NCBI GenBank assembly: GCA_903949225.1
Contig: CAJAYZ010000238.1
Coordinates: forward strand, 1-37,560
Source of the DNA: an uncultured Planctomycetaceae bacterium
Lineage (GTDB): Bacteria; Planctomycetota; Planctomycetia; Pirellulales; UBA1268
DNA: 37,560 bases
Reading direction: 5' to 3'
The notes under the pieces are model-generated. The model worked only from the letters and a program-made list of their open reading frames with translations. It ran no database searches and had not been told where the DNA came from. Numbering within the stretch: the first letter of the stretch is position 1; each line of letters starts with the position of its first letter. Shown in pieces: positions 5,692 through 24,742 of this stretch. Both the position numbers and the translations under genes were made by a program.

Positions 5692-5764
5692 GCGGGTGTA
5701 GCTCAGTTGGTAGAGCACCACGTTGCCAACGTGGTTGTCGTGGGTTCGAATCCCATCACCCGCT
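5692..5764 (+). tRNA. tRNA-Gly (anticodon GCC)
   Basis: The acceptor stem GCGGGTG/CACCCGC, D-arm AGCTCAGTTGGTAGAGC, anticodon stem-loop CCACG-TTGCCAA-CGTGG and T-arm GTGGGTTCGAATCCCAT all fit a cloverleaf. The discriminator is T, and no CCA is encoded. Confidence 0.9.
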
Positions 5765-6051: not shown

Positions 6052-7542
6052 ATGTCTGATACCGCCGCGCTCGATTCCGCCACGTCCGCCGCCCCCCTTC
6101 CGGGAGAGCGGCCTCCGCTGAAGCTCGACGTCGCCATCGACAAAGTGTCGACCTGCCAGCGCAAGGTGCGCGTCTCGATTCCGCGCGAGGACATCGCCCG
6201 CTACCACGCCGAGTGCATCGGCGAGATGGTGCCGACGGCTCATCTCCCCGGATTCCGCCCCGGTCGGGCCCCGAAGGCGCTCGTCGGGAGCCGCTTCAAG
6301 ACGGAGCTTTCGGAGCAGATCCGCTCGAAGCTCCTCGCCGACGCCATGACGCAGGTTTCGGAGACGGAGAAGCTGTCGCCGATCAGCGAGCCCGAACTCG
6401 ACGTCGGTGCGATCGTCCTCCCCGAAGATGGGCCGATGACGTTCGAGTTTTCGATCGAGGTCCGCCCTGAGTTTGAGATGCCGCAGTGGAAGGGGCTCTC
6501 GATCAAGCGGCCGACTCGTGAGATCTCCGAGAAGGATGTCGACGAAGCCCTCGCCAACGTCCTCCGCGACCGCAGTCGGCTTGTGCCCCACGACGGGGCT
6601 CCCGTCGAGGGGGATCTCGTCGTGGCCAACCTCCGCTTCCTCGACGGCGACACCGTACTTTCCGAGGCCAACGAGGTCGAGATCGTCGTTCGCGAGAAGC
6701 TCTCGCTGGCGGATGCCGAGCTGCCGGGATTCGCCAAGCTCGTTGCCAAGGCCAAGCCGGGCAAGCCGGTGACGGCGCCGGTGACCATCTCGAGCGAAGC
6801 TGCCGTCGAGGCGCTCCGCGGCAAGGAAGTCACCTTGGAGCTGACCGTGGTCGAGGTGAAGAAGCTCGAGTTGCCGGAGCTCAACGAGGAGGTTCTCGGC
6901 GAACTCGGCCCGTTCGCCGATGGCGACGCCCTCCGTGCCGCCATCCGTGGGCAGCTCGACGGGCAGCTTGCCTGGCATCAGCGCCGTGAGGTCCGCAAGC
7001 AGGTCGCCAGTGCCCTGACCGCCTCGGCGAACTGGGATCTCCCCCCCGATCTCCTCCGCCGACAGAGCCAGCGTGAGCTGGAGCGGGCGATCCTCGAGCT
7101 GCGCCGAAGCGGCTTCGATGACGATTCGATCCGCCGCCATGTCAACCAACTGCGGCAGTCGGTGATGGCGAGCACCGCCAAGGCCCTCAAGGAGCACTTC
7201 ATCCTCGAGCGGATCGCCGAGGAGGAATCGATCGCGGAGACGGGAGCCGACTACGACGAGGAGATCCGCGCGATCGCCGCGCAGTCGGGCGAGTCGCCCC
7301 GTCGGGTGCGTGCCAGCCTCGAGAAGCGCGGCCTGATGGACGTCCTCCGCAATCAGATCATCGAGCGCAAGACCCTCGACCTGATCACGACCAGCGCTAC
7401 GTTCGCCGACACTCCCTTCGAGTTCCCCAAGCCCGACGCCGACGCCGTCGACCATGCGGTCTGCGGTGAGCTTGTGGGGGATGACGCGATCCCGACTGCC
7501 AATCATGCCGAGGCCTCTGCGGTGCGTGCCCCGAGGCGCTAA
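6052..7542 (+). CDS. tig: Trigger factor
   Basis: The N-terminal ribosome-binding signature GFRPGRAPK is present. Domain order and length (496 aa from the ATG at 6052) fit trigger factor, and clpP follows as in the classic tig-clpP arrangement. Confidence 0.9.
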
Positions 7543-7607
7543 AGCTCCGGCTTCCCACGTCCCCGGTCCCCCTTCGTTTGTCAAGCGTCCCCACCCGGGC
7601 CCCCACC

Positions 7608-8243
7608 ATGCACGACCGTCCCTTCGATCCGCGCTCGTCCAGCGCCTCCAGCGCCTCCCGCGACTACCAGCGGCAGAGGCAGATGACGCTCGGCGACCTG
7701 CTTCTCGAGAATCGGATCATCCTGCTCCAGGGGGAGATCTACGACGGCAACGCCAACGAGCTGGTCATGAAGCTGCTCTATCTCCAGAGCGACAACCGGC
7801 GCAAGGACATCCACTTCTACATCAACTCGCCCGGCGGCAGCGTCACGGCGACGATGGCGATCTACGACACGATGCAGATCCTTTCCTGCCCGGTGGCGAC
7901 CTACTGCGTGGGGATCGCCGCCAGTGGCGGGGCCGTGCTGCTCGCCGGTGGCGCCAAGGGGAAGCGTTTCGCCCTGCCGCACTCGAAGGTGATGATTCAC
8001 CAGCCCTACGGCCAGGTCGGCGGCCAGGTGAGCGACATCGAGATCCAGGCCGACGAGATCCTCAAGACCCGCTCCGTCCTCAACGAGATTTTGGCGGATC
8101 ACACCGGGCAACCGCTCGAGCGGATCGCCAGGGACACCGACCGGGACCGCTATCTCTCCGCCATTGAGGCGAAGGAGTACGGTCTTGTCGACGAGATCCT
8201 CACCAAGCCCCCAGTGACCGGCGACGACAAGGAGAAGGACTGA
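7608..8243 (+). CDS. clpP: ATP-dependent Clp protease proteolytic subunit, paralog 1 (N-terminally extended)
   Basis: [11 protein letters not shown]...[18 protein letters not shown]...[32 protein letters not shown]...DTDRD. The Ser/His/Asp triad positions are retained. The ATG at 7608 is preferred over the TTG at 7578. Confidence 0.85.
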
Positions 8244-8246
8244 CCG

Positions 8247-8849
8247 ATGCCTCTCATCCCTTACGTCATCGAGAAGAGCGGCCGCGAAGAGCGGGCGATG
8301 GACATCTACAGTCGCCTGCTCAAGGACCGGATCATCTTCCTCGGCAGTCAGGTCAACGACGAGGTCGCCAACGCGATCGTCGCGCAGTTGCTCTTTCTGC
8401 AGTCCGACGACCCGAAGTCCGACATCCACCTCTACATCAACAGCCCGGGCGGCAGCGTTACGGCCGGGTTGGCGATCTACGACACGATGCAGTTCGTGAC
8501 CTGCGACGTCGCCACGTACTGCATCGGTCAGTGTGCCTCGATGGGGGCGGTGCTCCTCACGGCGGGCGCTAAGGGGAAGCGGCGTGCTCTGCCGAACTCC
8601 CGGATCATGATCCACCAGCCGCTCGCCGGCATGGAGGGGACGGCGGAGGAGATCATGATCCACGCCAAGGAGTTCCGCTACATCAAGCAGCGGCTCAACA
8701 TGATCCTCCAAAAGCACACCGGCCAGCCGCTCGATGAGATCGAGAAGCACACCGACCGTGACAACTTCATGGCCGCCGAGAAGGCCCGCGAATACGGACT
8801 CATCGACGAGGTGATCGACAGGATGCCGACGGTCAAGAGCGTCACCTGA
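8247..8849 (+). CDS. clpP: ATP-dependent Clp protease proteolytic subunit, paralog 2 (canonical)
   Basis: [15 protein letters not shown]...[20 protein letters not shown]...[29 protein letters not shown]...DTDRDNFM. It starts 3 nt after the stop of paralog 1. Confidence 0.92.
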
Positions 8850-11086: not shown

Positions 11087-11371
11087 TGGCAGACTCCTGG
11101 GGCGGGGCGCCGGGGAGGGCGGGGCGCCGGGGGTGGGAACGGCCTCCTGCGACGATTGCAGGATTGGTGGCCGCGGTGGACGCGCGAGCAAATATACACC
11201 CGCTCGCCAGGGCCGCTCAAACAACCCGTGGGCTGTCCCGCCACGCTCCCATCCCGCCGGGGCGTCGCCGCCCCCCCGGACGGAGAGATTCCCGCTCTTT
11301 CCCGCCGCGTGGCGATCGGGAATACTGCGGGGCGTTCCCCGTGGCCCTGTCCGCCGCTCTTCCGAGATGCC

Positions 11372-12061
11372 ATGTCGACCCCCGTCATCCAGCTCGAGAA
11401 GGTGCGGAAGTCATTCGCGATGCCGGGGGGGGACCGGGTCGACGTCCTCGACATCGAAGCCTTCACGGTTGCCCCCGGCGAGCACCTCGCCCTCGAGGGG
11501 CAGAGCGGGTCGGGAAAGTCGACGCTCCTCAACGTCATCTCCGGGATCACCCGCCCCGATGCCGGGAGGGTGGTCATCGATGGCATCGATCTGGCCCGGC
11601 TCGACGAGGCCCGTCGCGACCGGGTGCGGGCCGACAAGCTCGGGATGGTGTTTCAGTCGTTCAACCTCCTCCCCGGGTTTACCGCCCTGGAGAATGTCCT
11701 CGTGGCGATGGCCTTCGGGTCCGGGCGTCCCGACCGGTCGCGGGCCATGGAGCTCCTCAGCGCGGTCGACCTCGGCCACCGCCTTCACCATCGCCCCGCG
11801 GAGCTCTCCACCGGCCAGCAGCAACGCGTGGCCGTGGCCCGGGCCCTCGCCAACCGGCCGCGGGTCGTCCTCGCCGATGAGCCGACCGCCAGCATCGATG
11901 CCGCCCACCAGCAGCAGGTGATCGATCTCCTCCGCACGACCTGCACCGACCACGGCGTGGCGCTCGTCGTCGTCACGCATGCCCCGGAGGTGTCGGCCCA
12001 ATTCCCCCGCCGGCTCCGTCTCGAGGACTTCAACCGCGCCGCCGCCGTCCACAAGCGCTGA
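11372..12061 (+). CDS. ABC transporter ATP-binding protein (MacB/LolD/FtsE-type)
   Basis: Walker A GQSGSGKST, signature LSTGQQQRVAVARAL, Walker B VVLADEPT and H-loop VVVTHA. This is only the 3' 229 codons of the 618-aa track ORF. Confidence 0.9.
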   Translation: MSTPVIQLEKVRKSFAMPGGDRVDVLDIEAFTVAPGEHLALEGQSGSGKSTLLNVISGITRPDAGRVVIDGIDLARLDEARRDRVRADKLGMVFQSFNLLPGFTALENVLVAMAFGSGRPDRSRAMELLSAVDLGHRLHHRPAELSTGQQQRVAVARALANRPRVVLADEPTASIDAAHQQQVIDLLRTTCTDHGVALVVVTHAPEVSAQFPRRLRLEDFNRAAAVHKR

Positions 12062-12087: not shown

Positions 12088-13425
12088 ATGAACCTCCTCG
12101 GCATCGCCTGGCGCAACATTCGCCAGCGCCCCCTCACCAGCGCCCTGACGGCGGTGTCGCTGGCGCTCGGCGTGGCGCTGGTCGTGGCGACGCTCGTCAC
12201 CGGGAGAATCGTCCAGCAGGCCTTCGAGTCGGGGGCTGGGCTCGGCTACAACATGATCGTGGGGGCGAAGGGGAGCCCCCTCCAGCTCGTCCTCAACACC
12301 GTCTACTTGATCAGCAAACCGATCGAGAACGTCGGCTGGGACTTCTATGAGGAGTTCCTCCCGGCGGCGCGGCGCGCCGACGGGGTCGACGGGAAGTATG
12401 CCGCGAGCACCGGCGTGGCCGTCCCGACCTGCATGGGGGACTACTACCGCAGCTTCCGGGTCGTGGGAACGAACTCCGATTTCTTTGGCCGGCTCACGCG
12501 AGGCGACGGCGAGCCGTTCCGGTTCGCGGCGGGAGAGAATCTCCGCGACGATGACTTCTTCGCCGGCGTGATCGGCGCGAGTGTCGCCGACACCCTCGGC
12601 CTCAAAGTGGGAGATCCGTTCGCCCCCACCCACGGCGCCGATGACGGCAAGGTGCACGACCCGTTTCATGTCGTGGGGATCCTCGAGCGCACCTGGACGC
12701 CGATCGACCGCGGTGTGTTTGTCAACATGGAGGGTTTCTACCTCCAGGATGGCCATGCCAAGCCTCTGCCGGACGGGGTGGAGCCGGAGGTGACAACGAC
12801 CGTAGCCGCAGATGGCCAGACGCCGCAGGGGCCGGTACCGCTCCCGGCAAGTCAGCGGGAAGTGACGGCGATCCTCCTCGAGACCGCATCGCTGCCGGGG
12901 TTGCCGCCGGAACTGACGGCGATGGGCCTGCGGACGGCGATCAACGAGGGGCGTGACGCCCAGGCGGCGCTCCCGGTGGCAGAGATTCGTCAGCTCCTCG
13001 ATCTCTTCGTCCGGCCCCTCGAGCTCGTCCTCCTCATGGTCACGGCGCTGGTCGTGCTCGTGTCGGCGCTCGGCATCCTCATCAGCATGGTCGGCTCGTC
13101 GCTCGAGCGGAGCCGCGATGTGGCGATCATGCGCGCCCTGGGGGCACGCCGCGGTCATGTCCTGGCGACGGTCCTCATCGAGGCTGTGCTCCTCGCTGTC
13201 GGCGGGGGGCTGGTCGGCTGGGTGCTCGGGCATGCAATCGTGGCGGCGATCGGGCCTTGGATCGCCGCCAGCGCGGGGGTCAGGGCCGGGTTTTTCTCGT
13301 CGGCGCCCGAGGCCGAGGTCCTTCTCGTCCCGTTCCTCGTCCTCCTGGCGATCCTCGCGGCCTTGCTCCCGGCGCTGGCCGCCTACCGCACCGATGTCTC
13401 CCGGTGGCTGCAGGGCCCCGGCTGA
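12088..13425 (+). CDS. FtsX-family ABC permease with MacB-like topology (TM1, a roughly 250-aa periplasmic domain, then 3 C-terminal TMs)
   Basis: The N-terminus MNLLGIAWRNIRQRPLTSALTAVSLALGVAL is typical of MacB/LolCE permeases. The FtsX region ...MRALGARRGHVLATVLIEAVLL... has three hydrophobic helices. The gene starts 26 nt after the ATPase gene. Confidence 0.85.
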   Translation: MNLLGIAWRNIRQRPLTSALTAVSLALGVALVVATLVTGRIVQQAFESGAGLGYNMIVGAKGSPLQLVLNTVYLISKPIENVGWDFYEEFLPAARRADGVDGKYAASTGVAVPTCMGDYYRSFRVVGTNSDFFGRLTRGDGEPFRFAAGENLRDDDFFAGVIGASVADTLGLKVGDPFAPTHGADDGKVHDPFHVVGILERTWTPIDRGVFVNMEGFYLQDGHAKPLPDGVEPEVTTTVAADGQTPQGPVPLPASQREVTAILLETASLPGLPPELTAMGLRTAINEGRDAQAALPVAEIRQLLDLFVRPLELVLLMVTALVVLVSALGILISMVGSSLERSRDVAIMRALGARRGHVLATVLIEAVLLAVGGGLVGWVLGHAIVAAIGPWIAASAGVRAGFFSSAPEAEVLLVPFLVLLAILAALLPALAAYRTDVSRWLQGPG

Positions 13426-13524: not shown

Positions 13525-15129
13525 ATGAAACCCAACTCCCGCTCCGCGCGCCTTTCCCGCCTCGTGGTCGCTCTCCTAACCGTCTTCTTCACCGGCAGGA
13601 TGCCGGCCGCGTCGGCGTGCCCGTTTTGTTCGGCCGTGTCGCTGACGTTCTCGCAGGAGATCGCGCAGAGTCAGGTGGCCGTGATCGCCCGGCTCGTCGA
13701 GCCCCCGACCACCGCGTCGCTGTCACCCCGGTCTGACGGCCCGCTCCCCAAGGGGCGGTTCGTGGTCGTCGAAGCGCTCAAAGGGAATGATCTGCTCGAG
13801 GGGGCGGAGCTCCTCGATGTCGATGGCGTCCGCCAGATCGAGACGATCATGCTCGAGGTCAAGCCCGCCGGCACGACCTATCTCCTCATGGCTGTCGAGC
13901 CCCCGAAGCTCGTCTGGTCGAGCCCGATCCCGGTCAGCGATCGCGGGATCGACTATCTCAAGAAGCTCGCCGACCTCCCGGCCAAGGGGGCCGATCGGTT
14001 GGCGTTCTTCCAGAAGTATCTCGAGGATGCCGACGACACCCTGGCGCGCGACGCCTATGACGAGTTTGCGGTTGCCCCCTACGACGATGTCCGCGGCCTC
14101 GAGAGCCGGATGGACCCGACGCAACTGCTCGCCTGGATCGAGAATCCGAAGGTGCCCGCCAACCGGCGTCGTCTCTACGCCACGATGCTCGGGGTCTGCG
14201 GCACCAAGGCCGACGCCGATCGCATCGGGGCGATCCTTGCCAACACCGAGCCCGATCCGGCCAACGCCGAGGTGCGTTCGGGCCTCGACGCCCTCATCGC
14301 CTGCTATGTCACCCTCAAGGGCCCCGAGGGGCTCGACATGGTCGACACCCAGTTCCTCGACCGCAAGGGGCGGAATGTTCCCTTCACCGAAACCTACGCA
14401 GCGGTGATGGCGCTGCGGTTCCTCGGCGAGGAATCGACGGTGGTGCCACGGGAGCGGGTCCTGCAGTCATTGCGGATCCTCCTCGGCGAGCCGAAGCTCG
14501 CCGACCTCGTCATCGCCGATCTCGCTCGCTGGGAGGATTGGTCGGTCGTCGACCGGCTCGGCGAACTCTTCGAGAAGGCCGACGCCGACAACCTCTTCGT
14601 CCGCGAGCCGGTCGTGAACTACCTCAAGGCCTGCCCCGATCCCCACGCCGCCGAGGTGCTTGCGAAGCTCGAGAAGCTCGATCCCGAGGCGGTCCGCCGG
14701 GCGGCGACACTGGCCGGCTTTGCGGCGGCGCTTGCCGTGCCGAAGCCGGCTGAGGGTGCCCCCGCGGCCACCGAATCCGACGGTGATCCCGGCGACCCGT
14801 CCTCTCAGCCCGGAGGCGCGGCGCCTGCCGTGACGAGCCCGCCGGCCACCGAAGTCTCGGCGGCCGAAGCGGCGCTGGCCGCCCGCATCCCCCCGGTGTT
14901 GGGCGACGAGGATGCCACGGACGAAACCGTGGCGATCGATCCTGCCCGCGTCGAGGCCGGAGGGGAGCTGAAGGCTACTCCGATGGCACCGGCCATCGTG
15001 AATGGTGGATCGACGCCCGCCGCCAATCCGTGGGTGTCGACCTTGGGGCGGTGGTGCGGCGTAGCCCTCCTGCTGGCGGCGGTGGCGGTGCTGTCTCGGA
15101 TGGCGATGCGATCCTCCGGCGCCGCGTGA
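13525..15129 (+). CDS. Exported hypothetical protein: signal peptide, CPFC motif at the predicted mature N-terminus, helical-repeat-like body, Pro/Ala-rich linker and a C-terminal TM anchor
   Basis: MKPNSRSARLSRLVVALLTVFFTGRMPAASA-CPFC (Cys codons at 13618-13629). The body is rich in short Leu/Ala/Asp helices. The C-terminus WCGVALLLAAVAVLSRMAMR is hydrophobic then basic. It is a clear paralog of the 19377-20594 product. Confidence 0.7.
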   Translation: MKPNSRSARLSRLVVALLTVFFTGRMPAASACPFCSAVSLTFSQEIAQSQVAVIARLVEPPTTASLSPRSDGPLPKGRFVVVEALKGNDLLEGAELLDVDGVRQIETIMLEVKPAGTTYLLMAVEPPKLVWSSPIPVSDRGIDYLKKLADLPAKGADRLAFFQKYLEDADDTLARDAYDEFAVAPYDDVRGLESRMDPTQLLAWIENPKVPANRRRLYATMLGVCGTKADADRIGAILANTEPDPANAEVRSGLDALIACYVTLKGPEGLDMVDTQFLDRKGRNVPFTETYAAVMALRFLGEESTVVPRERVLQSLRILLGEPKLADLVIADLARWEDWSVVDRLGELFEKADADNLFVREPVVNYLKACPDPHAAEVLAKLEKLDPEAVRRAATLAGFAAALAVPKPAEGAPAATESDGDPGDPSSQPGGAAPAVTSPPATEVSAAEAALAARIPPVLGDEDATDETVAIDPARVEAGGELKATPMAPAIVNGGSTPAANPWVSTLGRWCGVALLLAAVAVLSRMAMRSSGAA

Positions 15130-15199: not shown

Positions 15200-15886
15200 A
15201 TGGCTGCCGGTCTCTTCGATACGCCCGAGTCGTCGGCCTCGGGCGATCTTCCTCCGATCGACGATGGCTATCGTGCCTTCGGAGGGGTGACGATCGCTGC
15301 GACCGTGCTCGCGCTCCTCTCCCCCTTGGGCTTCATCGATTGGTGGCTCCTGACGGTGCCGCTGCTGGCGGTTGTCCTCGGGCTCGTCGGCTGGCGCGAC
15401 ATCCTCGCTCGCCCGGATGTCCTCGCCGGCAAGGTGCTGGCGATCGGCTCAATGGTCGTCGGCAGCCTCCTGTTCGCCGGCGGCCTTTGGTACCAAGCGA
15501 CGGTCTACGCTCGCGAACTGCCACCGGGATTCGAGCGCCTCAACTACGCGGCCCTGCAGCCCGGGGAAGGGGAGCCGGCGAACATGATCCCGGAGTCAGC
15601 GGTGAAGATGCACGGTCGCGACGTCCTCCTGAAAGGTTACATGTATCCGGGAAAACAGCAGCGCGGCATCCGCCAGTTCCTCCTCGTGCGCGACCAGGGG
15701 GATTGCTGCTTCGGTGGCAATCCGAAGATCACCGACCGGGTGCTCGTGCAGATGGCCGACAAGCAGATGATCGAGTACACGCCGCGATTGCGGAAGATCG
15801 CGGGCCGGTTCTCGATCCGTCCTGCCGGGGCCGTCGATGTCGACGGCGGGGTGTTCTATCACCTGGAGGATGCCAGTGTCCGCTGA
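15200..15886 (+). CDS. Membrane-anchored CCFG-motif protein (DUF3299-like)
   Basis: Hydrophobic helices (VTIAATVLALLSPLGFIDWWLLTVPLLAVVLGLVGW and VLAIGSMVVGSLLFAGGLW) are followed by GYMYPGKQQRGIRQFLLVRDQGDCCFGG (CC at 15704-15709). The family assignment rests on motif resemblance only. Confidence 0.65.
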   Translation: MAAGLFDTPESSASGDLPPIDDGYRAFGGVTIAATVLALLSPLGFIDWWLLTVPLLAVVLGLVGWRDILARPDVLAGKVLAIGSMVVGSLLFAGGLWYQATVYARELPPGFERLNYAALQPGEGEPANMIPESAVKMHGRDVLLKGYMYPGKQQRGIRQFLLVRDQGDCCFGGNPKITDRVLVQMADKQMIEYTPRLRKIAGRFSIRPAGAVDVDGGVFYHLEDASVR

Positions 15887-16478
15887 CCGCCACGCCCGCC
15901 GGTGGTGGGCACTCGCCCTGCTGCTGACCTCCGTCACGATCGGCTGCGCGCCGGCGGAATCTCGGGTCGCGCCGCAGCAGCGCCCGGCCACGGGGGCCAG
16001 GGAGACAGGATCGGCCGCCGCGGGCGATCTGGCGCAGGAAGAAGCAGCGGGCGCTGCAGCGCCGGTCGTCGCGGTGAAGCCCCCGGCTGTTGCCACGGGC
16101 GATGGAAGGGTGCGGGAGATCACGTTCGACGATCTCAAGCTGCCACTGGAGAAGGGGGAGCCGTTTGATCGCGGGATCCTGCCGCCGGCGGTCGACGCCC
16201 TCCAGGGGCAGCGGGTGAGGATCCGCGGCTACATCCTCCCCAGCTTCCAGCAGCGCGGGATCACCCAGTTCGTGCTCGTCCGCGACAACATGGAATGCTG
16301 TTTCGGTCCCGGCGCGCTCCTCCATGACTGCGTCGTCGTGCGGATGCGGCCGGGCAAGTCGGCCGATTTCTCGATCCGCCCGGTGGCCGTGGCGGGATCG
16401 TTCCGGCTCGAGGAGCTCAAGGGCCCCGACGGCAAGCACTTGGCCGTCTACGCCATCGACGGCGACGCCGTGGAGTAA
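15870..16478 (+). CDS. Lipoprotein-type CCFG-motif protein (DUF3299-like), tandem paralog of the previous gene
   Basis: The signal WWALALLLTSVTIGC has a lipobox. The core is GYILPSFQQRGITQFVLVRDNMECCFGPG. The ATG at 15870 overlaps the upstream stop codon (15884-15886) by 17 nt. The GTG at 15876 is an alternative start. Confidence 0.65.
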   Translation: MPVSADRHARRWWALALLLTSVTIGCAPAESRVAPQQRPATGARETGSAAAGDLAQEEAAGAAAPVVAVKPPAVATGDGRVREITFDDLKLPLEKGEPFDRGILPPAVDALQGQRVRIRGYILPSFQQRGITQFVLVRDNMECCFGPGALLHDCVVVRMRPGKSADFSIRPVAVAGSFRLEELKGPDGKHLAVYAIDGDAVE

Positions 16479-16589
16479 GCCCTTTCGGGCATCCGTGAAC
16501 CACAGGCGGGCGTCTGTTACCATCACTTTGGCCTTTGATCGGCACGCCCGCCGCGCTCTGCGGTGATCCTCACTGCCCCAACGCCCGCC

Positions 16590-17384
16590 ATGCCCTTCGA
16601 CCTCTCCTGGTTCTACGACATCCCGACAGCCCGGGCGGCGCTGCTCATGGTGGGGGCGTTCGTCGCCTTCTACTGGGCCGGGGCGGTGGTCGTGCGGCCG
16701 ATCCTGCGGATATTCGTCCGCCGGGCGCCGGGGCTCAACGACCTCATCGGCTACATCCTCTCCTGCTTCTGCGTGTTTTACGGCCTGCTCCTCGGCCTGA
16801 TCGCCGTCACGGCCTATCAGAACGTCGAGTCGGCGGAGCAGAACGTCACCCGCGAGGCCGCGGCCCTCTCGGCCCTCTATGAGGACATGTCACGATATCC
16901 CGAGCCCCACGGCCAGGATCTCCGCTGGCTGATCCGCGACTACACGCGCTACGTCATCAAATATGCCTGGCCGTTGCAGCAACAGGGAATCATTCCGGAG
17001 GAGGGCACGATCCATGCCGAGGCCCTCTTCGATCGGCTCCTCGACTTCCAGCCCAAGACTCCCGGCGAGGAGATCCTCCATGCCGAGGCGCTGCGGCAGA
17101 TCAATCACTTCCTCGAATGCCGCCGGCTTCGCCTCCATTCCGTGCGGGCAGGATTGCCGCGGGCGATGTGGATCGTGATGTTCGTCGGGGCGTTTTTCAA
17201 CATCCTCCTCTGCTGGATGTTCGACACTCGCTTCCTCACCCAGCTCGTTCTCGGCGGGATTCTGGCCGCGTATCTGGGCTTGATGATGTACCTCATCGTC
17301 GACATGAATCAGCCCTTCCGCGGCGAGGTGAGTGTTTCGCCTGAGGCTTTTGAATTGCTCTACCAGCGGATGCTCGAGGACTGA
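16590..17384 (+). CDS. DUF4239-like integral membrane protein
   Basis: An N-terminal TM, a central soluble helical region and two C-terminal TMs ending ...DMNQPFRGEVSVSPEAFE match my recollection of DUF4239 proteins. The GTG at 16563 is an alternative start. Confidence 0.6.
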   Translation: MPFDLSWFYDIPTARAALLMVGAFVAFYWAGAVVVRPILRIFVRRAPGLNDLIGYILSCFCVFYGLLLGLIAVTAYQNVESAEQNVTREAAALSALYEDMSRYPEPHGQDLRWLIRDYTRYVIKYAWPLQQQGIIPEEGTIHAEALFDRLLDFQPKTPGEEILHAEALRQINHFLECRRLRLHSVRAGLPRAMWIVMFVGAFFNILLCWMFDTRFLTQLVLGGILAAYLGLMMYLIVDMNQPFRGEVSVSPEAFELLYQRMLED

Positions 17385-17385
17385 C

Positions 17386-18708
17386 ATGCCGGTCCCCCCC
17401 GACACCCAGCCCCTCAATCGCGGCGCCGTCACCCGGCGTGAAGCGCTCCGGTCCGGGGTTGCTGCCACGCTTGCCGCCGCGCGGGTGCTGGCGCCTTCGT
17501 TGTTTGTCGGCTGTTCGCTCGGCATCCCGCCGCGGGCACCGACGGTGAGGATCGGGCTGCTCCATTCGCAGACCGGGCCGCTGGCGATCGGCTCGACGTC
17601 GCTGCGCGACGTCGAGCTCGATGCCGTGGAGCGCTTCAACGCCGCCGGCGGAATCCTCGGATTCTCGATCGATCCCCGCGCCCCCGACCCCCGGTCGCGG
17701 ACCGACCTGTTCCCCAAGCGGGCCACGACGCTCCTCGATGACGGGGCTGTGGCGCTGTTCGGTTGCTGGTCGAGCGCCAGCCGCAAGGCGGTGCTTCCGA
17801 TCGTCGAGGAGCGCGACAGCCTCCTCTTTTATCCGGTGCAGTATGAGGGGAACGAGAGCTCGCGAAACGTGATCTATGGCGGGCAGGTGCCCAACCAGCA
17901 GGTCCTCCCGGCCCTCGATTGGCTGCGGAGTGGGCCGGGGGGGGAGCGAAAGAAGTTTTTCCTCCTCGGCTCCGACTATGTCTACCCACGGACGACGAAC
18001 TTTATCGTGCGGAAGTGGCTTGCCGGCACCGGCGTCGAAATCGTCGGCGAGGAATATTTTTCCCTCGACAGCAAAGACTTCGCCCCGGTGGTAGCCCGCA
18101 TCCGCGAGCGCGGGGCCGACTGCATCCTCAATACCGTCAACGGCTCCGGGAACATCGCGCTGTTTGCGGCGCTGGCGGAGGCCGGGATCGATCCGGCGAA
18201 GGTTCCCCTGGTGTCGACGAGCGTCTCGGAGGACGACCTGCGGAGCATGCCGGCCGCCCATTCGGCTGGCCACTGGGTCCTGTCGAGCTACTTCCAGACC
18301 GTCGACACGCCCGCAAACGCCGCCTGGATGGCCGGCTTCCGTAGCGAGTTTGGCGAGGATCGCGTCTTCGGCGATTCGATGGAGGCCGCCTGGTGCCTGA
18401 TCAACCTCTGGAAGGTGGCGGTCGAGCAGGCAGGGTCGTTTAGCACCGAGGCGGTTCGCCAGGTGTTTGCCGCCGGGATCGGGTTCGATGGCCCAGGGGG
18501 ACGCATGACGATCGATCCCGCCACGCAGCACGCCACGAAACACTTCCGGCTGGGACGGGTGCGTCCCGATCGGCTCTGCGACGTCGTTGTTTCGTCGGAT
18601 GGTCCGCTCGCTCCCGACCCCTATCCGCAGGTCGCGTTCCCCGGGTGGAAATGCGATTGGACGAAGGGGGGGCTCCAGCCCGGCCAGGAGGTGTCGATCG
18701 ATGGTTGA
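17386..18708 (+). CDS. UrtA/AmiC-family (urea/short amide) periplasmic binding protein with a Tat-like signal and a lipobox-like Cys
   Basis: TRREALRSGVAATLAAARVLAPSLFVGC is followed by IGLLHSQTGPLAI..TSL.D.EL.AVE..NAAGGILG...LFGCWSSASRKAVLPIVEE...LFYPVQYEGNE...NQQ..PALDWL...FFLLGSDYVYPRTTN...SYFQTVDTPAN. This is strongly collinear with UrtA/AmiC. The ATG lies 1 nt after the upstream stop. Confidence 0.85.
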   Translation: MPVPPDTQPLNRGAVTRREALRSGVAATLAAARVLAPSLFVGCSLGIPPRAPTVRIGLLHSQTGPLAIGSTSLRDVELDAVERFNAAGGILGFSIDPRAPDPRSRTDLFPKRATTLLDDGAVALFGCWSSASRKAVLPIVEERDSLLFYPVQYEGNESSRNVIYGGQVPNQQVLPALDWLRSGPGGERKKFFLLGSDYVYPRTTNFIVRKWLAGTGVEIVGEEYFSLDSKDFAPVVARIRERGADCILNTVNGSGNIALFAALAEAGIDPAKVPLVSTSVSEDDLRSMPAAHSAGHWVLSSYFQTVDTPANAAWMAGFRSEFGEDRVFGDSMEAAWCLINLWKVAVEQAGSFSTEAVRQVFAAGIGFDGPGGRMTIDPATQHATKHFRLGRVRPDRLCDVVVSSDGPLAPDPYPQVAFPGWKCDWTKGGLQPGQEVSIDG

Positions 18709-19375
18709 GTTCGACATCGAGGTCTCCGAGGGATGCCGCTGGCTCAAGGTCATCCTCGACGACGATGACGTCCGCACCGAGCGCGGCGCGCTCTATCGGA
18801 TGAGCGGCGACATCGAGATGGACGTGCCGCTGCCGTCACCGCGGGCGATGTTTGTTTCGATGTTCTCCGACGAATCGGTGGTCCGGCCGCGGTACGTGGG
18901 CACGGGGGAGCTTTATCTCGATTCGACCTTCGGCGGCTACCACATCTTCGACGTCCAGCAGGGGGAGCGCTGGATCCTCGAGCATCGTTGCTTCTGGGCC
19001 TCCGAAGGGGAGGTGAAACTCGCGATCCACCGCGAGCGGCTCTGGACGTCGTACTGGGCCGGCGAGGGATTGCTCTGGTACAAGACGGCGCTGGTTGGTG
19101 AGGGGAAAGTGGTCCTGAGCGTCGACGGCCCTGTCGAGGAGATCGAGCTCGACAACGAGCGGGTCGTGCTCGACGGGGGATTCGCGGTGGCCCGGACCAG
19201 CGGGATCACGATGCGGATGAAGCGCCCCGCCCGCTCCTATCTAAGCCACTGGCTGTCCGGGCAGAAGCTGTCGTGCGTTTACGAAGGGACCGGACGGCTG
19301 TTCATCTGTGCCGTTCCTTACTGGCGGCAGCGATTGCAGAAGTCGAAGGAAGCCGACTCCCTTGCGTACGGCTGA
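18701..19375 (+). CDS. AIM24-family (DUF124) protein
   Basis: MVEFDIEV...LKVILDDDDVRTERGALYRMSGDIEMDV...GTGELYLDSTFGGYHIFDV..GERWILEHRCFWASEGEVKL...GEGKVVLSVDGPVEEIEL...VVLDGGFAVA fits the AIM24 pattern. AGGAGG lies 9 nt upstream. The start overlaps the binding-protein stop by 8 nt (ATGGTTGA). Confidence 0.7.
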   Translation: MVEFDIEVSEGCRWLKVILDDDDVRTERGALYRMSGDIEMDVPLPSPRAMFVSMFSDESVVRPRYVGTGELYLDSTFGGYHIFDVQQGERWILEHRCFWASEGEVKLAIHRERLWTSYWAGEGLLWYKTALVGEGKVVLSVDGPVEEIELDNERVVLDGGFAVARTSGITMRMKRPARSYLSHWLSGQKLSCVYEGTGRLFICAVPYWRQRLQKSKEADSLAYG

Positions 19376-19376
19376 G

Positions 19377-20594
19377 ATGCTTGGCCTCGATCACCTACCG
19401 GGCCGGTCAGGGCATGGGTGCCAATCGGATCGCTTTCCTATGCCGTCGGGCCGAGGGCCCGGAATCTTTCGGCTGCTCGGTCTCGCCGCAGTGCTCCTCA
19501 TCCTCCCGGCGATCTCGAGCGAAGCCTGTCCGTTCTGCGGGCCTGTTGGCGATTCGCTGGCCCGGCGCCGCGACTCGGCAGGCTACGTCTGTATCGCCGA
19601 GGCTGCGGATCGGGCCCGGCCCGACGCTTCCGGACTCCTCGCCGGCTCGTTCCGGGTGATCCAGGTGCTGCCCGACACTCCCGGCCGGGTCGACGGCGAG
19701 CCCCCCACGCTGGTCACCGCCCGGGTGGCAGCGCCGGTGGAGGGGACGGCGGTGCTGTTCGGATCGGCCGAGTCGCCCGTGCGCTGGACAGCGGTGGCGG
19801 CGGACGAGACGCTCCTCGGGCATGTCGTTACGGCGCCAGCGATCACGGAGCCTGTCGGCGAACGGCTCGCGTGGTTTGCTGCCCGCCTCGAGCATCCCGA
19901 GCCGGCGATCGCCGACGATGCCTTCGCGGAGTTTGCCGTCGCCCCTTTCCCGGCTGTCCGCGAGGCGGCGGCGGCACTCGCGGCGCGGCCTCTGGCGACC
20001 TGGGTGGCCGATCCTGCCACCGACCAACGGCGAAGGGGATTCTATGGACTGGCGCTCGGCGTCGTCGTGGCGGAGGGATCGTCCGGCGGGAAGAGGCTGT
20101 CGTCAGCCGCTCTCCGGGCGGCACTCGAGACGGCTGGCGGTGACTTCCGTGCCGGGGCTGACGGGCTGATGGCGGGGATCCTCGTCGCCGAGGGCGTCGA
20201 TGGGCTCGATTGGCTCGCCGACCGGGCCAGTCCCGATCGGCCGGTCGATCAGCGTCAGCTCCTTGCGGCCCTCCGTTTCGCCCGTGAGTATCTCACCGGG
20301 ACGATTCCCCCCGCGAGGATCTCCGCGGTGACGGCGGAACTCGCCCAAAGCCCGGCGGTGGCTGCCCTAGCGATCATCGATTTGGCCCGCGCGGAGGCTT
20401 GGGAAGAGGTCGATGCGGTGGCAGCGTGGTGGGATGCGGCCGCCGACGATCCGCTCATCCGTCGTGCCGTCGCCGGGTATCTCGTTGCCTGCCCGTCGGC
20501 TGCGGCGCGGGAGCACCTCGATCGGATTGGCCGAGAGGATCCGGCGGCCTTGGCCGCCGCCCGAGCGGCGGCGGACTTACCGCTGGGACGCTGA
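19377..20594 (+). CDS. Exported hypothetical protein, second CPFC-motif paralog (no C-terminal anchor)
   Basis: ...GIFRLLGLAAVLLILPAISSEA-CPFC (Cys codons at 19527-19538). It shares blocks with the 13525-15129 product (see findings). The ATG at 19377 is 1 nt after the AIM24 stop. The ATG at 19440 would give a more canonical signal peptide (MPSGRGPGIFRLLGLAAVLLIL...). Confidence 0.65.
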   Translation: MLGLDHLPGRSGHGCQSDRFPMPSGRGPGIFRLLGLAAVLLILPAISSEACPFCGPVGDSLARRRDSAGYVCIAEAADRARPDASGLLAGSFRVIQVLPDTPGRVDGEPPTLVTARVAAPVEGTAVLFGSAESPVRWTAVAADETLLGHVVTAPAITEPVGERLAWFAARLEHPEPAIADDAFAEFAVAPFPAVREAAAALAARPLATWVADPATDQRRRGFYGLALGVVVAEGSSGGKRLSSAALRAALETAGGDFRAGADGLMAGILVAEGVDGLDWLADRASPDRPVDQRQLLAALRFAREYLTGTIPPARISAVTAELAQSPAVAALAIIDLARAEAWEEVDAVAAWWDAAADDPLIRRAVAGYLVACPSAAAREHLDRIGREDPAALAAARAAADLPLGR

Positions 20595-20639: not shown

Positions 20640-22982
20640 TTACCGGCCCTGCGTTGCCGCGGCATCGGCGGGGGTGCTGATGACCCGTCCCGACGGAGCG
20701 CTTTCGGCCTTCCAGCCGGTGAGGGCATTGCCCCAGGGCTTTGCCGATTCCAGCGTGATCTGCGAGACCGGCATGAGCACCGACGGCACGGCCGGCGGGA
20801 GCAGCGCGGCGGCGGCGGGGCTGGCGGCCTTCGCGGGATTCGGCAGCGGAGCGGGCGTCGGAATCTCCTCGAGCGGATTGCCACCGGCCGGAGCCTTGCC
20901 GTCGCCGGCCGGCTTGGGCGCGGGGGTCGACGTCTCCTCGTTCGTGGCCGGATCACGGGGGGGGAGTTGCTGGGCCCCTGTCCCGGCGCCGATGCCGTCG
21001 AAGTCCTGCGTGATCGGCCCGCGGCTGAAGACGCCAGGGCGGGAGTGGCCGTAGTCGAGGAACAGGCTGGCGTCCCGCTGCCGGGCCCGGCGGTAGGAAT
21101 CGAAGTAGGCCTTGCCGGGCCACGGGCCTTCGGCGAGGAACACGCCGTTGTATTCGAGGAGCGAGCCTTTGCGGAAATGGAGCTGGGCGATCGAGCGGTT
21201 GTAATCGACGACCGAGCGGTAGTAGGCGCTCTCGGCGTCGGCCCGACGGCGCTGGGCGTCGAGGAGCTGGTCGAGGGTCACGGTGCCGGCATCATAGGCC
21301 GCCTGGACCGCCTCCACCTGCCGCTCGGAGGCAACGCGGCGATTGAAGTTTGTCTGCGAGAGGGCGAAGTTCGTGTCGACGTTCCGCACCGCTTCGACCA
21401 GCGCGTGCGACACTTCCATCTCCTCGTCTTGGAGCCGGGAGCGTTCACGGGCGAGCTGGAGCTGATAGTTGCGGACGGTGGAGAGCTCGCGGCGGAAGCC
21501 GATCGGCATGAGGAACTGTGCCCCGGCCTGCCATTCCTGAAACCTCCCGCTGGAGAGCGTCGAGTAGGCGTCGGTGCCGTTGAGCGGGTCGAGACCTTCG
21601 GCGTTGTAGGGGCTGTAGTTCTGATTGATGAGCTCCTGACCCATGCCGAGGAACCGGTAATAGCCGTTCATGTCGAGCCGGGGGAGAAGGAGGTTCTTCG
21701 AAGCAACGAGCTCGAGCTCCTTCTGCTTGACCACCCACTTCTGTCGACGGAGCTCCGCCGACCGGGAGAGCGATTCGACGAGCGACTGCTGCCAATCGAA
21801 GGTGACTCGGGCCGTCGTCGGCTCGTCGGAGGGGCGGATGAGCCGGCCGTCGGAGGCCGAGAGCCCCATCATGTAGCGAAGCCTGTTCTCGCTCCGGTAG
21901 ACGTCGGTGAGCGCGTTCTCAACGTCGCTGCGGAAGAAGAAGTACTGCTCGCGGGCCTGGGCCTCCTTGTCAGCTTCTCCGCCGCGCGACTGCTCGACGT
22001 AGAGGGCGTGGACCTTGCGCCATGCCTCCAGCGCGCTGTCGCGGCCGGCCTTGCGGGCCTCGAGATTGCGGTAGGCGAAGTAGAGTTCCCAGTACGCCTG
22101 CTCGGTGTCGCTGACCATATTGCGGACACCGATCTCGAAGTCGGCCAGCGACTGATCAGCGAGCACGCGGGCAATGAGCACGCCGCGGAAGTTAGGGCGA
22201 CCGTTGATGTTGTTGAAAGCGTCGGGGCCGGCGATCCGGTTGTAGGTCAGCCCCGCGCCCTGGAGGAGGGGCTGGTTGAAGGTGAAGTCGTAGTTGGTGA
22301 GCCATGTCGACGGCACGCCGTCTTGGCGGATTGGGGAGTTGTTATTGTCGTAGACGGTCTGGTTTTGGATCCCGAACGTGCTGCCGGTCGCCGACACCTT
22401 GCTGATCCCGGTCGTCCACGTGCCGATGTCGCCGAGGAGTTTCTGCTGGAAGATCTGCGTGCCGACGCCGCCGACGTTCTGCGGCCGGTTCTGCCGGGCC
22501 CAGGTGAGCGAGCTGGAGAGCTGGGCATCAAACGACGCAAGCGCGCTCTCGACGCCGCGGAAGGGGTCGGTCTCGCTGATCGCCGGATCGTAGACGGTGG
22601 GGTAGGCGGCCGGATTGGTGAGCAGCGACACCGCCGGCTCGCCGGCCTGGGGCCGTGGGCCACCGAAGCTCTGGAAGCGGCCTCCGAGGCTCCTGAGCAC
22701 TTTGCCATTCTCGAGTGCCGTCCGGATGGCGTCCTCGAGCGACACCTCCCAGACCTGGTCGAAGTTGGCGTTGGAGAGCGTGAGCGGCTCGATCGTGCCG
22801 GCCGCCTCGTCGAGCGGCTGGTGGACCGTGTCGGGGTACTCGATCTTCTGGATGGCACCGACGTAGTGCGAGAGGTCGCCGTCCTCGAAGAAGTAGAACG
22901 GCTGCCGCGGGGCGCAACCGCTGGCCACGAGCGTGAGGCTCGTCATGACCGTCCAGGCTCGTCGCAGCAGGAGGTTTGGCAC
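20640..22982 (-). CDS. TolC-family outer membrane efflux protein (lipoprotein type) with a long Pro/Ala-rich C-terminal tail
   Basis: A GTG start at 22982 gives (M)PNLLLRRAWTVMTSLTLVASGC. The body has the typical OEP repeats (LSLEDAIRTALENG..., FNQPLLQGAG, LADFEI..R....D.EQAYWELY.A..NLEA, ...AQLHFRKGSLLEYN). The last approximately 150 aa are P/A/G-rich. The ATG at 22946 is an alternative start. Confidence 0.8.
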   Translation of the reverse strand: MPNLLLRRAWTVMTSLTLVASGCAPRQPFYFFEDGDLSHYVGAIQKIEYPDTVHQPLDEAAGTIEPLTLSNANFDQVWEVSLEDAIRTALENGKVLRSLGGRFQSFGGPRPQAGEPAVSLLTNPAAYPTVYDPAISETDPFRGVESALASFDAQLSSSLTWARQNRPQNVGGVGTQIFQQKLLGDIGTWTTGISKVSATGSTFGIQNQTVYDNNNSPIRQDGVPSTWLTNYDFTFNQPLLQGAGLTYNRIAGPDAFNNINGRPNFRGVLIARVLADQSLADFEIGVRNMVSDTEQAYWELYFAYRNLEARKAGRDSALEAWRKVHALYVEQSRGGEADKEAQAREQYFFFRSDVENALTDVYRSENRLRYMMGLSASDGRLIRPSDEPTTARVTFDWQQSLVESLSRSAELRRQKWVVKQKELELVASKNLLLPRLDMNGYYRFLGMGQELINQNYSPYNAEGLDPLNGTDAYSTLSSGRFQEWQAGAQFLMPIGFRRELSTVRNYQLQLARERSRLQDEEMEVSHALVEAVRNVDTNFALSQTNFNRRVASERQVEAVQAAYDAGTVTLDQLLDAQRRRADAESAYYRSVVDYNRSIAQLHFRKGSLLEYNGVFLAEGPWPGKAYFDSYRRARQRDASLFLDYGHSRPGVFSRGPITQDFDGIGAGTGAQQLPPRDPATNEETSTPAPKPAGDGKAPAGGNPLEEIPTPAPLPNPAKAASPAAAALLPPAVPSVLMPVSQITLESAKPWGNALTGWKAESAPSGRVISTPADAAATQGR

Positions 22983-23034
22983 GGTTGGGGGTCCGGCGTA
23001 CGGGCATTGAGGATCACGGTGATTCAAAAGCTGC

Positions 23035-23132
23035 CGCTGCGCCCAAGGGGTTCGCCCGTCGAAGCCGACGGACCGATCCCGACGCAGTGCCCCCCGACGC
23101 TGCATCCGACTCGCGTGCACTTGGGCGCAGCG
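23035..23132. repeat. 13-bp perfect inverted repeat (CGCTGCGCCCAAG / CTTGGGCGCAGCG) flanking 72 nt
   Basis: The arms at 23035-23047 and 23120-23132 were read directly, with an internal small hairpin CGTCG-AAGC-CGACG. It lies between the apbE stop and the TolC-like start, both on the minus strand. Confidence 0.85.
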
Positions 23133-23248: not shown

Positions 23249-24256
23249 TTAGCGCTGTAGAGGGCGAGTGCGTTCCCCAACACCCGGCCAGCGACTCGTC
23301 TGCACCTCGCGGACGATCCTTTCACCGTCCCCGTCCACCGAAACGAACCGCCCGGCGCAGCCTGCCTGGTTTTCCAGGAGCGTCCGGCCGCGGACCGGCC
23401 CGAGGACATTCGCCGCGGTCGCCAGGGCATCGGCGGTGGTGGCGTCCGCGGCGATGACCGTCACCGCTGCCGGCCCGTCGATGCCGATCCCGGTGCGGGG
23501 ATCGACGATGTGGCTGTAGCGGCGGCCGCCGATCGCGACCGACTGCCTCGCATCCCCGCTGGTGGTGATCGCCGCGTGGGCGAGAAGCACCTCCCCGGTC
23601 ATGGCCGCCGGCGTGCCGGGGATCGGGTCGATCGCGATCCGCCACCCCTCCTCCCCGGGTGGCGCTCCCGAGGCTCCGACATCACCCGAGGCATCGACGA
23701 GGGCCGAGTCGATTCCCTGCTCGGAGAGGATTGCCAGGGCCCGGTCGATCGCATAGCCCATCCCAATGCCGCCGAGATCGAGTCGCATCCGCGGGCGGGT
23801 GAGCCGGACGCCGCGGGGGGCGGCGACGAGCACGAGGGCTCCGGCTCCCACCGCCGCCCGGGCGGCGTCGAGCTTCGCAGGGAGCGGGAGGGCACCGGAT
23901 CGGCGAGACTGACGCCAGAGGGTCGTCAGCGGCCCGACGGTCGGGTCGAAGGCACCGTCACTGGCGTCGCGGAACGCCACGGCGCGGGTGAGGACCTCCC
24001 ACATCTCGTCGCTCACTGGCACAGGGCTTTCCATCGGGGCCGCGGCCGAGAGCCGGGAGAGCTCGGAGTCGGGACGGTAGTCGGAGAGGATCGCCTCGAG
24101 CCGTTCGACCTCGTCGAGGGCCGCTGCCACCCCCCGCTCGCCGGCGGCAGGCCTGGCGGCGTAGACGGTGACGGTCCAGGGAACCCCCATCAGCCGCCGG
24201 CCGCCGGAGATGCGAACCAGCGGCACGTCGGCAGCCGACATGGTATTTTTCTTCAT
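23249..24256 (-). CDS. apbE: FAD:protein FMN transferase (ApbE family)
   Basis: RLMGVPWTVTVYA...ELSRL...FDPTVGPL..LW...LDLGGIGMGYAIDRA...SALVDASGD...HIVDPRTG... is collinear with ApbE. The ATG at 24256 is preceded by GGAGGGGAG. The upstream part of the 520-aa track ORF is an antisense shadow. Confidence 0.85.
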   Translation of the reverse strand: MKKNTMSAADVPLVRISGGRRLMGVPWTVTVYAARPAAGERGVAAALDEVERLEAILSDYRPDSELSRLSAAAPMESPVPVSDEMWEVLTRAVAFRDASDGAFDPTVGPLTTLWRQSRRSGALPLPAKLDAARAAVGAGALVLVAAPRGVRLTRPRMRLDLGGIGMGYAIDRALAILSEQGIDSALVDASGDVGASGAPPGEEGWRIAIDPIPGTPAAMTGEVLLAHAAITTSGDARQSVAIGGRRYSHIVDPRTGIGIDGPAAVTVIAADATTADALATAANVLGPVRGRTLLENQAGCAGRFVSVDGDGERIVREVQTSRWPGVGERTRPLQR

Positions 24257-24742
24257 ATGGAACTCTCCCCTCCGCCGGTCGTGATTCGTTTCGACTGCAC
24301 GCCCCTGCGTGCCCTCGCTCGTGCCGAGGTGCCGGCCGAGGCATCGCCCCGGTTCCGCGCGCTGGTCGGGCGGATGCAGGCCGCGGTCGCCAAGCATGGC
24401 GTCCGCAATGCCTATTATCTCACGAACGCCTCCTGCACGTTCCGGTTCACGAATGCCCCGGAGCGTGGATGGGTGGCCTTCGATGTCGAAGGAACCGTCC
24501 TGACCGACGATCTCGACACCCACACGGTGGGGAGCGATCTGACGGTGAAGCTCACCAAGGAAACCTGCGACTGGCTGACGCAGCCGGCCGTTGCCTGGCT
24601 CGACCTCAGCGTCCGCCGTGCGGTCGAGGCGGAGTTCGACCGCTACATCGCCGCCGGCGATCTGGGGCGGACGCTCGAGCGACTGGCCCGCGAACAGGCC
24701 GACAGCGATGCCGCCGGCGGGTTCCTCGGGATGAATCTGTAA
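24257..24742 (+). CDS. Hypothetical 161-aa protein, divergent from apbE
   Basis: This frame has strong G/C third-position bias from the ATG at 24257 to the TAA at 24740-24742. I recognised no family. The start is uncertain; the GTG at 24281 and the ATG at 24374 are alternatives. Confidence 0.5.
   Translation: MELSPPPVVIRFDCTPLRALARAEVPAEASPRFRALVGRMQAAVAKHGVRNAYYLTNASCTFRFTNAPERGWVAFDVEGTVLTDDLDTHTVGSDLTVKLTKETCDWLTQPAVAWLDLSVRRAVEAEFDRYIAAGDLGRTLERLAREQADSDAAGGFLGMNL

Follow-up and report, generated by a model that had tools for sequence, protein, structure and literature searches.

The stretch analysed here, 37,560 nt from an uncultured Planctomycetaceae bacterium (contig CAJAYZ010000238.1; in the following the window), contains two overlapping genes whose products, proteins A and B, are both shown by profile searches and a predicted structure to be DUF3299-fold proteins. 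Both carry a Cys-Cys pair in their signature loop. Their genes are the last of five closely spaced plus strand genes with a coding-type GC content at third codon positions (GC3), which encode an ATP-binding cassette (ABC) ATPase, a MacB-type permease, a secreted protein with the motif CPFC, A and B (Table 1). We consider it probable that A and B assemble on the permease as a hetero-oligomer and take part in a Cys-based handling of thiophilic cargo, within a five-gene planctomycete counterpart of PA4064-PA4066 from Pseudomonas aeruginosa and of ZrgBC/ZrgE from Vibrio. The DUF3299/ABC system as such was already known and is functionally unexplained; new here is a Cys-based, duplicated and membrane-tethered variant.

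A reading of the window from its letters, the sequence-only reading, had proposed a link to DUF3299 (PF11736) and, as the alternative, a new small family. The DUF3299 link is supported by the results. Protein B matches the PF11736 profile significantly (24.6 bits, E=2.9e-5; gathering score 22) over profile positions 43-137 of 139, and phmmer aligned it with the PDB chain 4hsp_A of PA4066 (E=5.6e-4). Protein A alone stayed below the gathering score, reaching 15.7 bits as a full-length protein and 17.9 bits as an isolated domain, and a phmmer search of full-length A against PDB returned nothing meaningful. The membership of A follows instead from its paralogy to B, from the match of the family profile to 4HSP and from the fold. 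The paralogy had been seen correctly: BLASTP gave 36% identity between A and B over 88 aa (E=3e-17), and the core GY(M/I)xPxxQQRGIxQF(L/V)LVRDxxxCCFG...D.V.V.M...R...AG.F is common to both as described. The profile of a diverse alignment of 103 family members matched PA4066 (4HSP) with E=8.2e-5 over 98 residues, and 88 of these 103 members matched PF11736 at E<=0.01. Using the same alignment, the AlphaFold model of the A domain reached a predicted local distance difference test score (pLDDT) of 87.4 and a predicted TM-score (pTM) of 0.83. Foldseek placed 4HSP at the top of the PDB matches of this model (E=2.4e-6, probability 1.0, TM-score 0.68) and as the sole match at E<=1e-3; the lower matches were generic oligonucleotide/oligosaccharide-binding (OB) folds. 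The fold comparison was made with the A domain, since the single-sequence AlphaFold model of B (pLDDT 42.5) was too poor.

That A and B might be a small family unrelated to DUF3299, with a merely convergent likeness, is suggested by the low Pfam score of A alone and by the absence of the canonical His and PPPP-NQ residues from both proteins. However, B lies above the threshold together with the 88 matching members, profile and fold searches both single out 4HSP, and the adjoining ABC genes have their homologues next to PA4066. Within the limits of sequence and predicted fold this explanation is already refuted, and we leave it next to no probability. The label of a new small family does not apply either, because many of the 2327 B homologues are already named accordingly, as PF11736/DUF3299 in Pfam or as 'DUF3299 domain-containing protein' in NCBI. 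The 742 A homologues are all called 'hypothetical' or 'DUF4190', none of them DUF3299, and Pfam finds a DUF4190-like N-terminus in A. The A subfamily is currently unrecognised as DUF3299, and the many A-type proteins with these two labels can now be assigned to the family. A weak cross-match to the DUF1980 C-terminal domain (PF21537) was found for 4 of the 103 members at E<=0.01 (best E=5.7e-4). In addition, B matched TIGR03943, a putative permease subunit of the DUF1980 type, with E=0.018 over GY...FVLVRD..CCF, at 14.5 bits compared with a cut-off of 88.8. The DUF1980 family carries a Cys-Cys motif too; its partner permease and its domain context differ from those of A and B.

The Cys-Cys pair is conserved in 240 of the 240 closest homologues and in all 150 of the best representatives of clusters at 50% identity. 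These 150 representatives kept VRD-x3-CCFG, one of them in the form CCYG. In the diverse alignment D57, C61, C62, F63 and G64 were invariant (103/103), and R56 and D71 were found in at least 90% of the members. Because the pair is invariant across homologues, cluster representatives and the diverse alignment, its occurrence is not due to chance. With a profile of the A and B domains, 3067 representative clusters were reached at E<=1e-3, and 1134 clusters at the stricter E<=1e-10. Two subfamilies can be distinguished: the A-type combines N-terminal transmembrane helices, three in most full-length members, with CCFGGNPKxTDR, and the B-type combines a signal peptide or lipobox with CCFGPGAALYDC, which adds a third Cys and is typical of 134 of the 150 cluster representatives.

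For comparison with canonical DUF3299 proteins we used six sequences from annotated records, namely PA4066, two Sulfitobacter proteins and a single one from each of Vibrio, Rhizobium and Catenovulum. LVP-xx-GAC-x-H-x-P(P/S)PPP-NQ is present in every one of them, so that the motif FLLVPxxGxCxH, which had been given for the family, proved right. A and B do not match this canonical loop (LVP-x-x-G-A-C-x-H-x-PPPP-x-N-Q), and only its Cys is kept. On the question whether the Cys-Cys pair aligns with the conserved residues of canonical members the answer is divided: the first Cys does align, but the second one replaces an aliphatic residue. CCFG is aligned with C-I-H-V, with Phe in place of His, and the D-C or D-R of the Cys-Cys type (D-C in B) is aligned with the N-Q of PPPPxNQ. 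Within this alignment the first Cys is shown to be the sole polar motif residue common to the Cys-Cys type and canonical DUF3299.

Both open reading frames (ORFs) have a coding-type GC3, 0.82 for A and 0.86 for B. The N-terminal membrane anchor ascribed to A was recovered by hydropathy as three hydrophobic segments (residues ~25-99). Positive charge in the loop between helices 2 and 3 indicates that the C-terminal domain of A would face the periplasm. The lipobox of B is present as well, at the end of the signal peptide (LLLTSVTIGC, with Cys26 as the lipobox Cys). With A anchored by transmembrane helices, B by a lipobox and the Cys-Cys pair invariant, the early description of a Cys-Cys variant duplicated into two differently anchored forms is borne out. 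The described overlap of 17 nt between the genes depends on the start of B: it is correct for ATG 15870, but other starts change its length. A start at GTG 15876, with GGAGGA 5 nt upstream, leads to an overlap of 11 nt and is at least as likely as ATG 15870; it also agrees with the 200 aa called for most orthologues. The longest ORF of B begins at 15837 and overlaps A by 50 nt. A possible twin-arginine signal in B (ARRWW) was dropped, as it is not kept in the other B-type proteins read. Protein P0154 (384 aa, from a 2-kb metagenome contig) was likewise rejected as a true A-B fusion, because its junction RLRKMAACSTISRMPLSGDRLL reads like a frameshift artefact. P0339 is a second sequence with two CCFG motifs.

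DUF3299 proteins had been described as neighbours of FtsX/ATPase pairs, and this holds for the window. Sequence identity amounts to 42% between the ATPase and PA4064 (E=7e-52) and to 30%, over 372 aa, between the permease and PA4065 (E=1e-40). Scores of the permease against the NCBIfam equivalog families LolC/E, FtsX and MacB ranged overall from 16 to 59 bits compared with cut-offs of 225-966, and it remained far below the individual cut-offs (lolCE 31.8 bits versus 362, MacB 37.5 versus 966, FtsX 16-25 versus 225-255). Two His residues of the permease, His182 and His190 (THGADDGKVH, 12628-12657), are invariant in 75 aligned permeases including PA4065 and the Sulfitobacter homologue. Cys115 (TCMGD, 12427-12441) is present in at least 93% of these permeases and is replaced by Ser in PA4065. 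In a divergent module with 55% GC (locus L082) the permease (6346-7824) contains a periplasmic loop of 94 aa with 18 His and 24 Asp/Glu (HQHDPDHAHDETEAAAHDEHDHAEHDHSSHAQHDHSAHAH); the window permease has at this site a loop of 42 aa with one His. A permease-specific scan detected smaller His/Asp clusters at the same loop site in L085, L067, L054, L092 and L014. His-rich stretches from a scan of all loci were discarded, as they were mostly off-frame artefacts of high-GC DNA.

To follow the neighbourhood of A and B, the window proteins were mapped onto all of 163 related loci, and only testable loci were counted. Protein A adjoins B in 126 of 130 loci, the CPFC protein lies upstream of A-B in 90 of 92, and the homologues adjoin a MacB-type ABC pair homologous to PA4064/PA4065 in 62 of 70, as had been expected for DUF3299 proteins. 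In two further loci, beyond the 62 with both ABC genes, the permease is located at the locus edge behind an insertion. The ATPase gene is kept upstream of the permease gene in related loci, and the mapped five-gene modules leave no space for an extra gene between the ATPase and B. In locus L085 three of the four gene junctions within the module are overlaps of 4 nt. The module is kept at GC contents from 47% to 69% and despite varied flanks, which differ by lineage (SmpB, DUF1501, lipoyl synthase, DUF4432, cyclophilin, Ser/Thr kinase). Conserved order, differing flanks and tight packing indicate that the five genes behave as one unit. Co-occurrence is strict, and the genetic linkage of A and B to the PA4065-type permease and the CPFC protein is obligatory.

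Among species-representative genomes, 425 related stretches were detected. With three exceptions, the best 80 of these 425 were labelled Planctomycetota, mostly Pirellulales or Planctomycetaceae freshwater metagenome-assembled genomes (MAGs); the exceptions were one unclassified MAG and two Chitinophaga-relative labels that look mislabelled. Another 80 loci, with a GC content down to 47%, came from a metagenome search that started from a divergent member. The five-gene module is found in every planctomycete lineage sampled. Some MAG contigs 92-99% identical to the locus (L002, L004, L006, L007 and others) have been deposited as 'Candidatus Kuenenia stuttgartiensis', and two loci with 76-79% identity (L033, L037) under Chitinophaga-related names; these labels look like taxonomic errors.

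In the CPFC protein a signal peptide ending in xxA precedes a helical, HEAT-like body, which is followed by a linker rich in Pro and Ala and by a transmembrane anchor at the C-terminus. Its predicted mature N-terminus is CPFCSAVSLTF, with CPFC encoded at 13618-13629. The ACPFC motif occurs in 120 of the 120 closest homologues, and C32, P33, F34, C35 and C370 are invariant in an alignment of 23 sequences. All 2171 homologues are unnamed. A second CPFC paralogue encoded downstream, whose start at M45 was inferred from the signal peptide, is according to tblastn maps about 28-31% identical to the 534-aa protein. In L056, L076, L096, L107, L119 and L129 its gene directly follows or overlaps B, and it is possibly part of the ancestral module. 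The second CPFC gene is usually convergent with a TolC-like gene. Among the 49 loci with a second CPFC gene (more than 40% identical to that of the window), 30 contain the TolC-like gene, and many of these 49 end too early for a decision. It also lies downstream of the second CPFC gene in metagenome loci and is absent from marine-clade loci. The TolC-like protein is a possible partner of the module, although the association is unproven. No gene for a membrane-fusion adaptor of the HlyD type is located near the TolC-like gene.

Several characterized or annotated systems resemble the module. PA4066 shares with A and B the OB-like fold and the core GY..P....F.LV....C....V....G.F....Y; it is periplasmic, and its gene immediately follows those of a split MacB-type ATPase and permease, as A and B lie beside the homologous pair. 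It has been described as an OB-like protein that forms oligomers. In contrast to the window, where two copies with the loop RD-x3-CCFG are anchored by transmembrane helices and by a lipid, PA4066 is a single soluble protein with GAC-I-H-V-PPPP-S-NQ. Its operon PA4063-PA4066 is Zur-regulated and begins with PA4063 (DUF2796); the window has instead, between the permease and the DUF3299 genes, the unrelated CPFC/HEAT-like protein. In Vibrio ZrgABCDE a DUF3299 protein likewise adjoins a MacB-type ATPase/permease pair. This protein had been given as ZrgD, which is wrong, since ZrgD belongs to DUF2607 and the DUF3299 member is ZrgE (PMC9817125). The Zrg system has the canonical Cys-x-His motif and Zur regulation, and it contains the His-rich ZrgA (DUF2796) and ZrgD, neither of which is encoded in the window. 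Both the PA4063-66 and the Zrg systems respond to zinc limitation (PMC11481552, PMC9817125, PMC9820375).

Duplicated DUF3299 genes were also found outside the planctomycetes. On a plasmid of Sulfitobacter sp. S190 (L165, 4791-5791) two tandem DUF3299 genes overlap by 7 nt and follow genes for DUF2796, the ATPase and the permease. Unlike A and B, both copies are soluble proteins with ordinary signal peptides and canonical GACxHxPPPPxNQ. The L4 island of V. vulnificus has the order permease, ATPase, DUF3299, DUF3299 (PMC12777771). Together with the Sulfitobacter tandem this pair indicates that duplication of DUF3299 beside the pump is recurrent. The DUF3299 gene of a Rhizobium plasmid (L167) is an orphan without ABC genes, and the copy of Catenovulum (L168) adjoins a gene with a MerC domain.

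For the transport direction of such pumps, which is disputed, two proposals have been made. Import was the first proposal for ZrgABCDE and PA4063-66: ZrgABC supports growth of Vibrio under zinc limitation, and DUF3299 proteins were considered as possible binding proteins (PMC9820375, PMC10393844). Transferred to the window, A and B, which both face the periplasm, would capture the substrate of an importer, a scarce metal or some other solute, and present it to the ABC permease for transport into the cytoplasm. We regard this as improbable. The four-helix architecture of FtsX/MacB permeases has no known transmembrane import pathway, membrane-tethered OB domains are unlike known solute-binding proteins, and the role of the binding protein falls in Vibrio to ZrgA, which has no homologue here. 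Moreover, PA4064/65 has been re-interpreted: it was modelled as a MacB-type exporter, and export of cobalt-pyochelin was proposed (PMC11481552).

On the reading we favour, Cys-based handling of thiophilic cargo at a MacB-type permease, A would be held in the inner membrane by its three transmembrane helices and B by its lipid anchor, both facing the periplasm. A hetero-oligomer of A and B may dock on the periplasmic domain of the permease, which contains the invariant His182 and His190 and the clade-specific Cys115. The Cys-Cys/Asp loops of A and B and the N-terminus of the CPFC protein could then form thiolate sites for binding a thiophilic cargo or passing it on, the most probable cargo being a metal ion or a metal chelate. 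ATP-driven movement of the permease would expel the cargo from the periplasm or relocate it within the periplasm. We propose that the module is a cysteine-based rewiring of a histidine-based system. The 18-His insertion in L082, the smaller His/Asp clusters and the zinc and cobalt biology of the homologous operons give hints at metal handling.

The most serious rival is a housekeeping envelope function without metals. In this case the pump would take out or shift an envelope component, for instance a lipoprotein, a lipid or a peptide, A and B would serve as structural adaptors, and the Cys-Cys pair would be a vicinal disulfide, or a redox switch, giving a tight loop its shape. The systems LolCDE and FtsEX of the MacB family are generally known to work in this way, and the helical partner with its CxxC could be a redox partner. 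The lineage-wide presence of the module with 425 confirmed stretches, its variable flanking genes, which are not metal-related, the lack of any detected metal-type regulation signal and the TolC-like gene nearby in many loci would fit as well. On the other hand, the permease is far from LolC/E, FtsX and MacB by NCBIfam score and clearly PA4065-like with the invariant His pair. The system of PA4065 itself responds to zinc and cobalt, and the His-rich inserts in orthologous permeases point to metals. We therefore judge this rival unlikely, but to be taken seriously.

In the region upstream of 11372 no Zur/Fur-type operator, no AT-rich palindrome and, using Rfam, no riboswitch was detected; a Zur motif is not defined for Planctomycetota. 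This region contains a single GC-rich inverted repeat of 16 nt with 75% complementarity. A sigma-70-like site is present only in the form of the divergent GAPDH promoter (TTGAGC-N18-TATATT; 11191-11220, minus strand), which is conserved in relatives. Many relatives (with such signals in L013, L014, L017, L045, L052, L074, L060 and L023) possess a TTGACA/-10 pair that lies no more than about 10 nt from the ATG of the ATPase gene; the window and its closest relatives lack this pair. A palindrome AAAAC-N(2-6)-GTTTT over the -35 sequence TTGACA of some relatives is also absent from the window and the closest relatives and was not used as evidence. A gene for DUF2796 (ZrgA/PA4063) was not found among 24 window proteins scanned against Pfam. 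No metal-homeostasis genes were found among the window neighbours or in the flanks of the divergent loci checked. Without a ZrgA/PA4063-like gene, a detectable Zur box and metal-related flanking genes, the link to zinc is unproven.

Several points thus weigh against metal handling by A and B. Neither a ZrgA/PA4063 gene nor a Zur-like palindrome or a riboswitch is found in the window, and metal-homeostasis genes are absent from the neighbourhood. The module looks constitutive, is lineage-wide and often lies beside GAPDH, which a housekeeping envelope function would explain equally well. Adjacent cysteines in the oxidising periplasm may form a disulfide rather than bind a metal. No ligand is known for a DUF3299 protein; for PA4066 zinc binding was not evident, and single zrgE knockouts had no phenotype. 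A strongly His-rich permease loop was seen in one locus only (L082), and the sole apparent A-B fusion, P0154 with both CCFG motifs, looks by its sequence like a frameshift artefact.

A further step beyond the favoured reading would be an undescribed envelope machine of Planctomycetota, in which the A/B pair and the CPFC protein act as a cysteine relay to the MacB-type pump and possibly on to the TolC-like channel. A thiophilic metal or a thiol-reactive cargo would then be passed on without a classical membrane-fusion adaptor. We regard such a relay as doubtful. If it existed, the functional residue long sought for DUF3299 as a whole would be the invariant Cys common to PA4066 and ZrgE, and this would help to decide on the role of the Zur-regulated Zrg and PA4063-66 systems.

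PA4066 and ZrgE are functionally unexplained members of strongly zinc-regulated operons of pathogens. The planctomycete proteins represent a natural experiment in this respect: across more than 3000 clusters the canonical His and PPPP-NQ have been replaced, and one Cys was never lost. Mutagenesis in Pseudomonas and Vibrio, whose systems are tractable, could be directed at this invariant Cys and at the two invariant His residues of the permease. Another outcome is the definition of the five-gene module including the uncharacterised CPFC family with more than 2000 members.

Table 1. Genes and signature elements of the DUF3299/ABC module and of associated genes in the window.
Feature	Position	Strand	Evidence
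ABC ATPase, PA4064-like, with nucleotide-binding domain of the LolD/MacB type; opens the module	11372-12061	+	Pfam ABC_tran E=1.5e-34
FtsX/MacB-type permease with periplasmic MacB_PCD domain, PA4065-like	12088-13425	+	Pfam FtsX E=3e-15, MacB_PCD E=5.5e-11
Secreted CPFC protein, 534 aa	13525-15129	+	weak HEAT_2 match only
Protein A, three N-terminal transmembrane helices (~15272-15496), periplasmic DUF3299-fold OB-like domain (~15554-15883; predicted)	15200-15886	+	hydropathy, AlphaFold/Foldseek
Protein A signature loop VRDQGDCCFG, Cys169-Cys170 at 15704-15709	15686-15715	+	alignment
Protein B, lipobox VTIGC (15933-15947), low-complexity linker, DUF3299 domain (~16119-16475)	15870-16478	+	Pfam DUF3299
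Protein B loop VRDNMECCFG, Cys143-Cys144 at 16296-16301; B-type-specific Cys154 (HDC) at 16329-16331	16278-16331	+	
Second CPFC paralogue, signal peptide followed by CPFCGPV (19527-19538)	19440-20594	+	tblastn maps
TolC-like outer-membrane efflux protein, 826 aa, convergent with the second CPFC gene	20640-23120	-	Pfam OEP E=4.4e-19

The region between B and the second CPFC gene (16563-19375) contains genes for a bestrophin-like protein (PF14023), an UrtA-like periplasmic binding protein (without UrtBCDE) and an AIM24/TIGR00266-like protein. They were not accepted as members of the module, as they are absent from this position in several lineages. This looks like an insertion into an older arrangement of B and CPFC, or like a loss from it. 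Downstream of the TolC-like gene an ApbE-like flavin transferase is encoded (23249-24300, minus strand), and this adjacency is kept in relatives. The DNA of the window is GC-rich (66-70%) and carries PSCyt1/PSCyt2/PSD1 and DUF1501 genes, which are typical of Planctomycetota. A tRNA gene is located at 5692-5764 (plus strand), and two tandem ClpP paralogues follow the trigger factor gene (7578-8849, plus strand). A protein of 269 aa encoded at 3869-4678 (plus strand), which is unrelated to the module, scores 26 bits against DUF5666 compared with a gathering score of 27.

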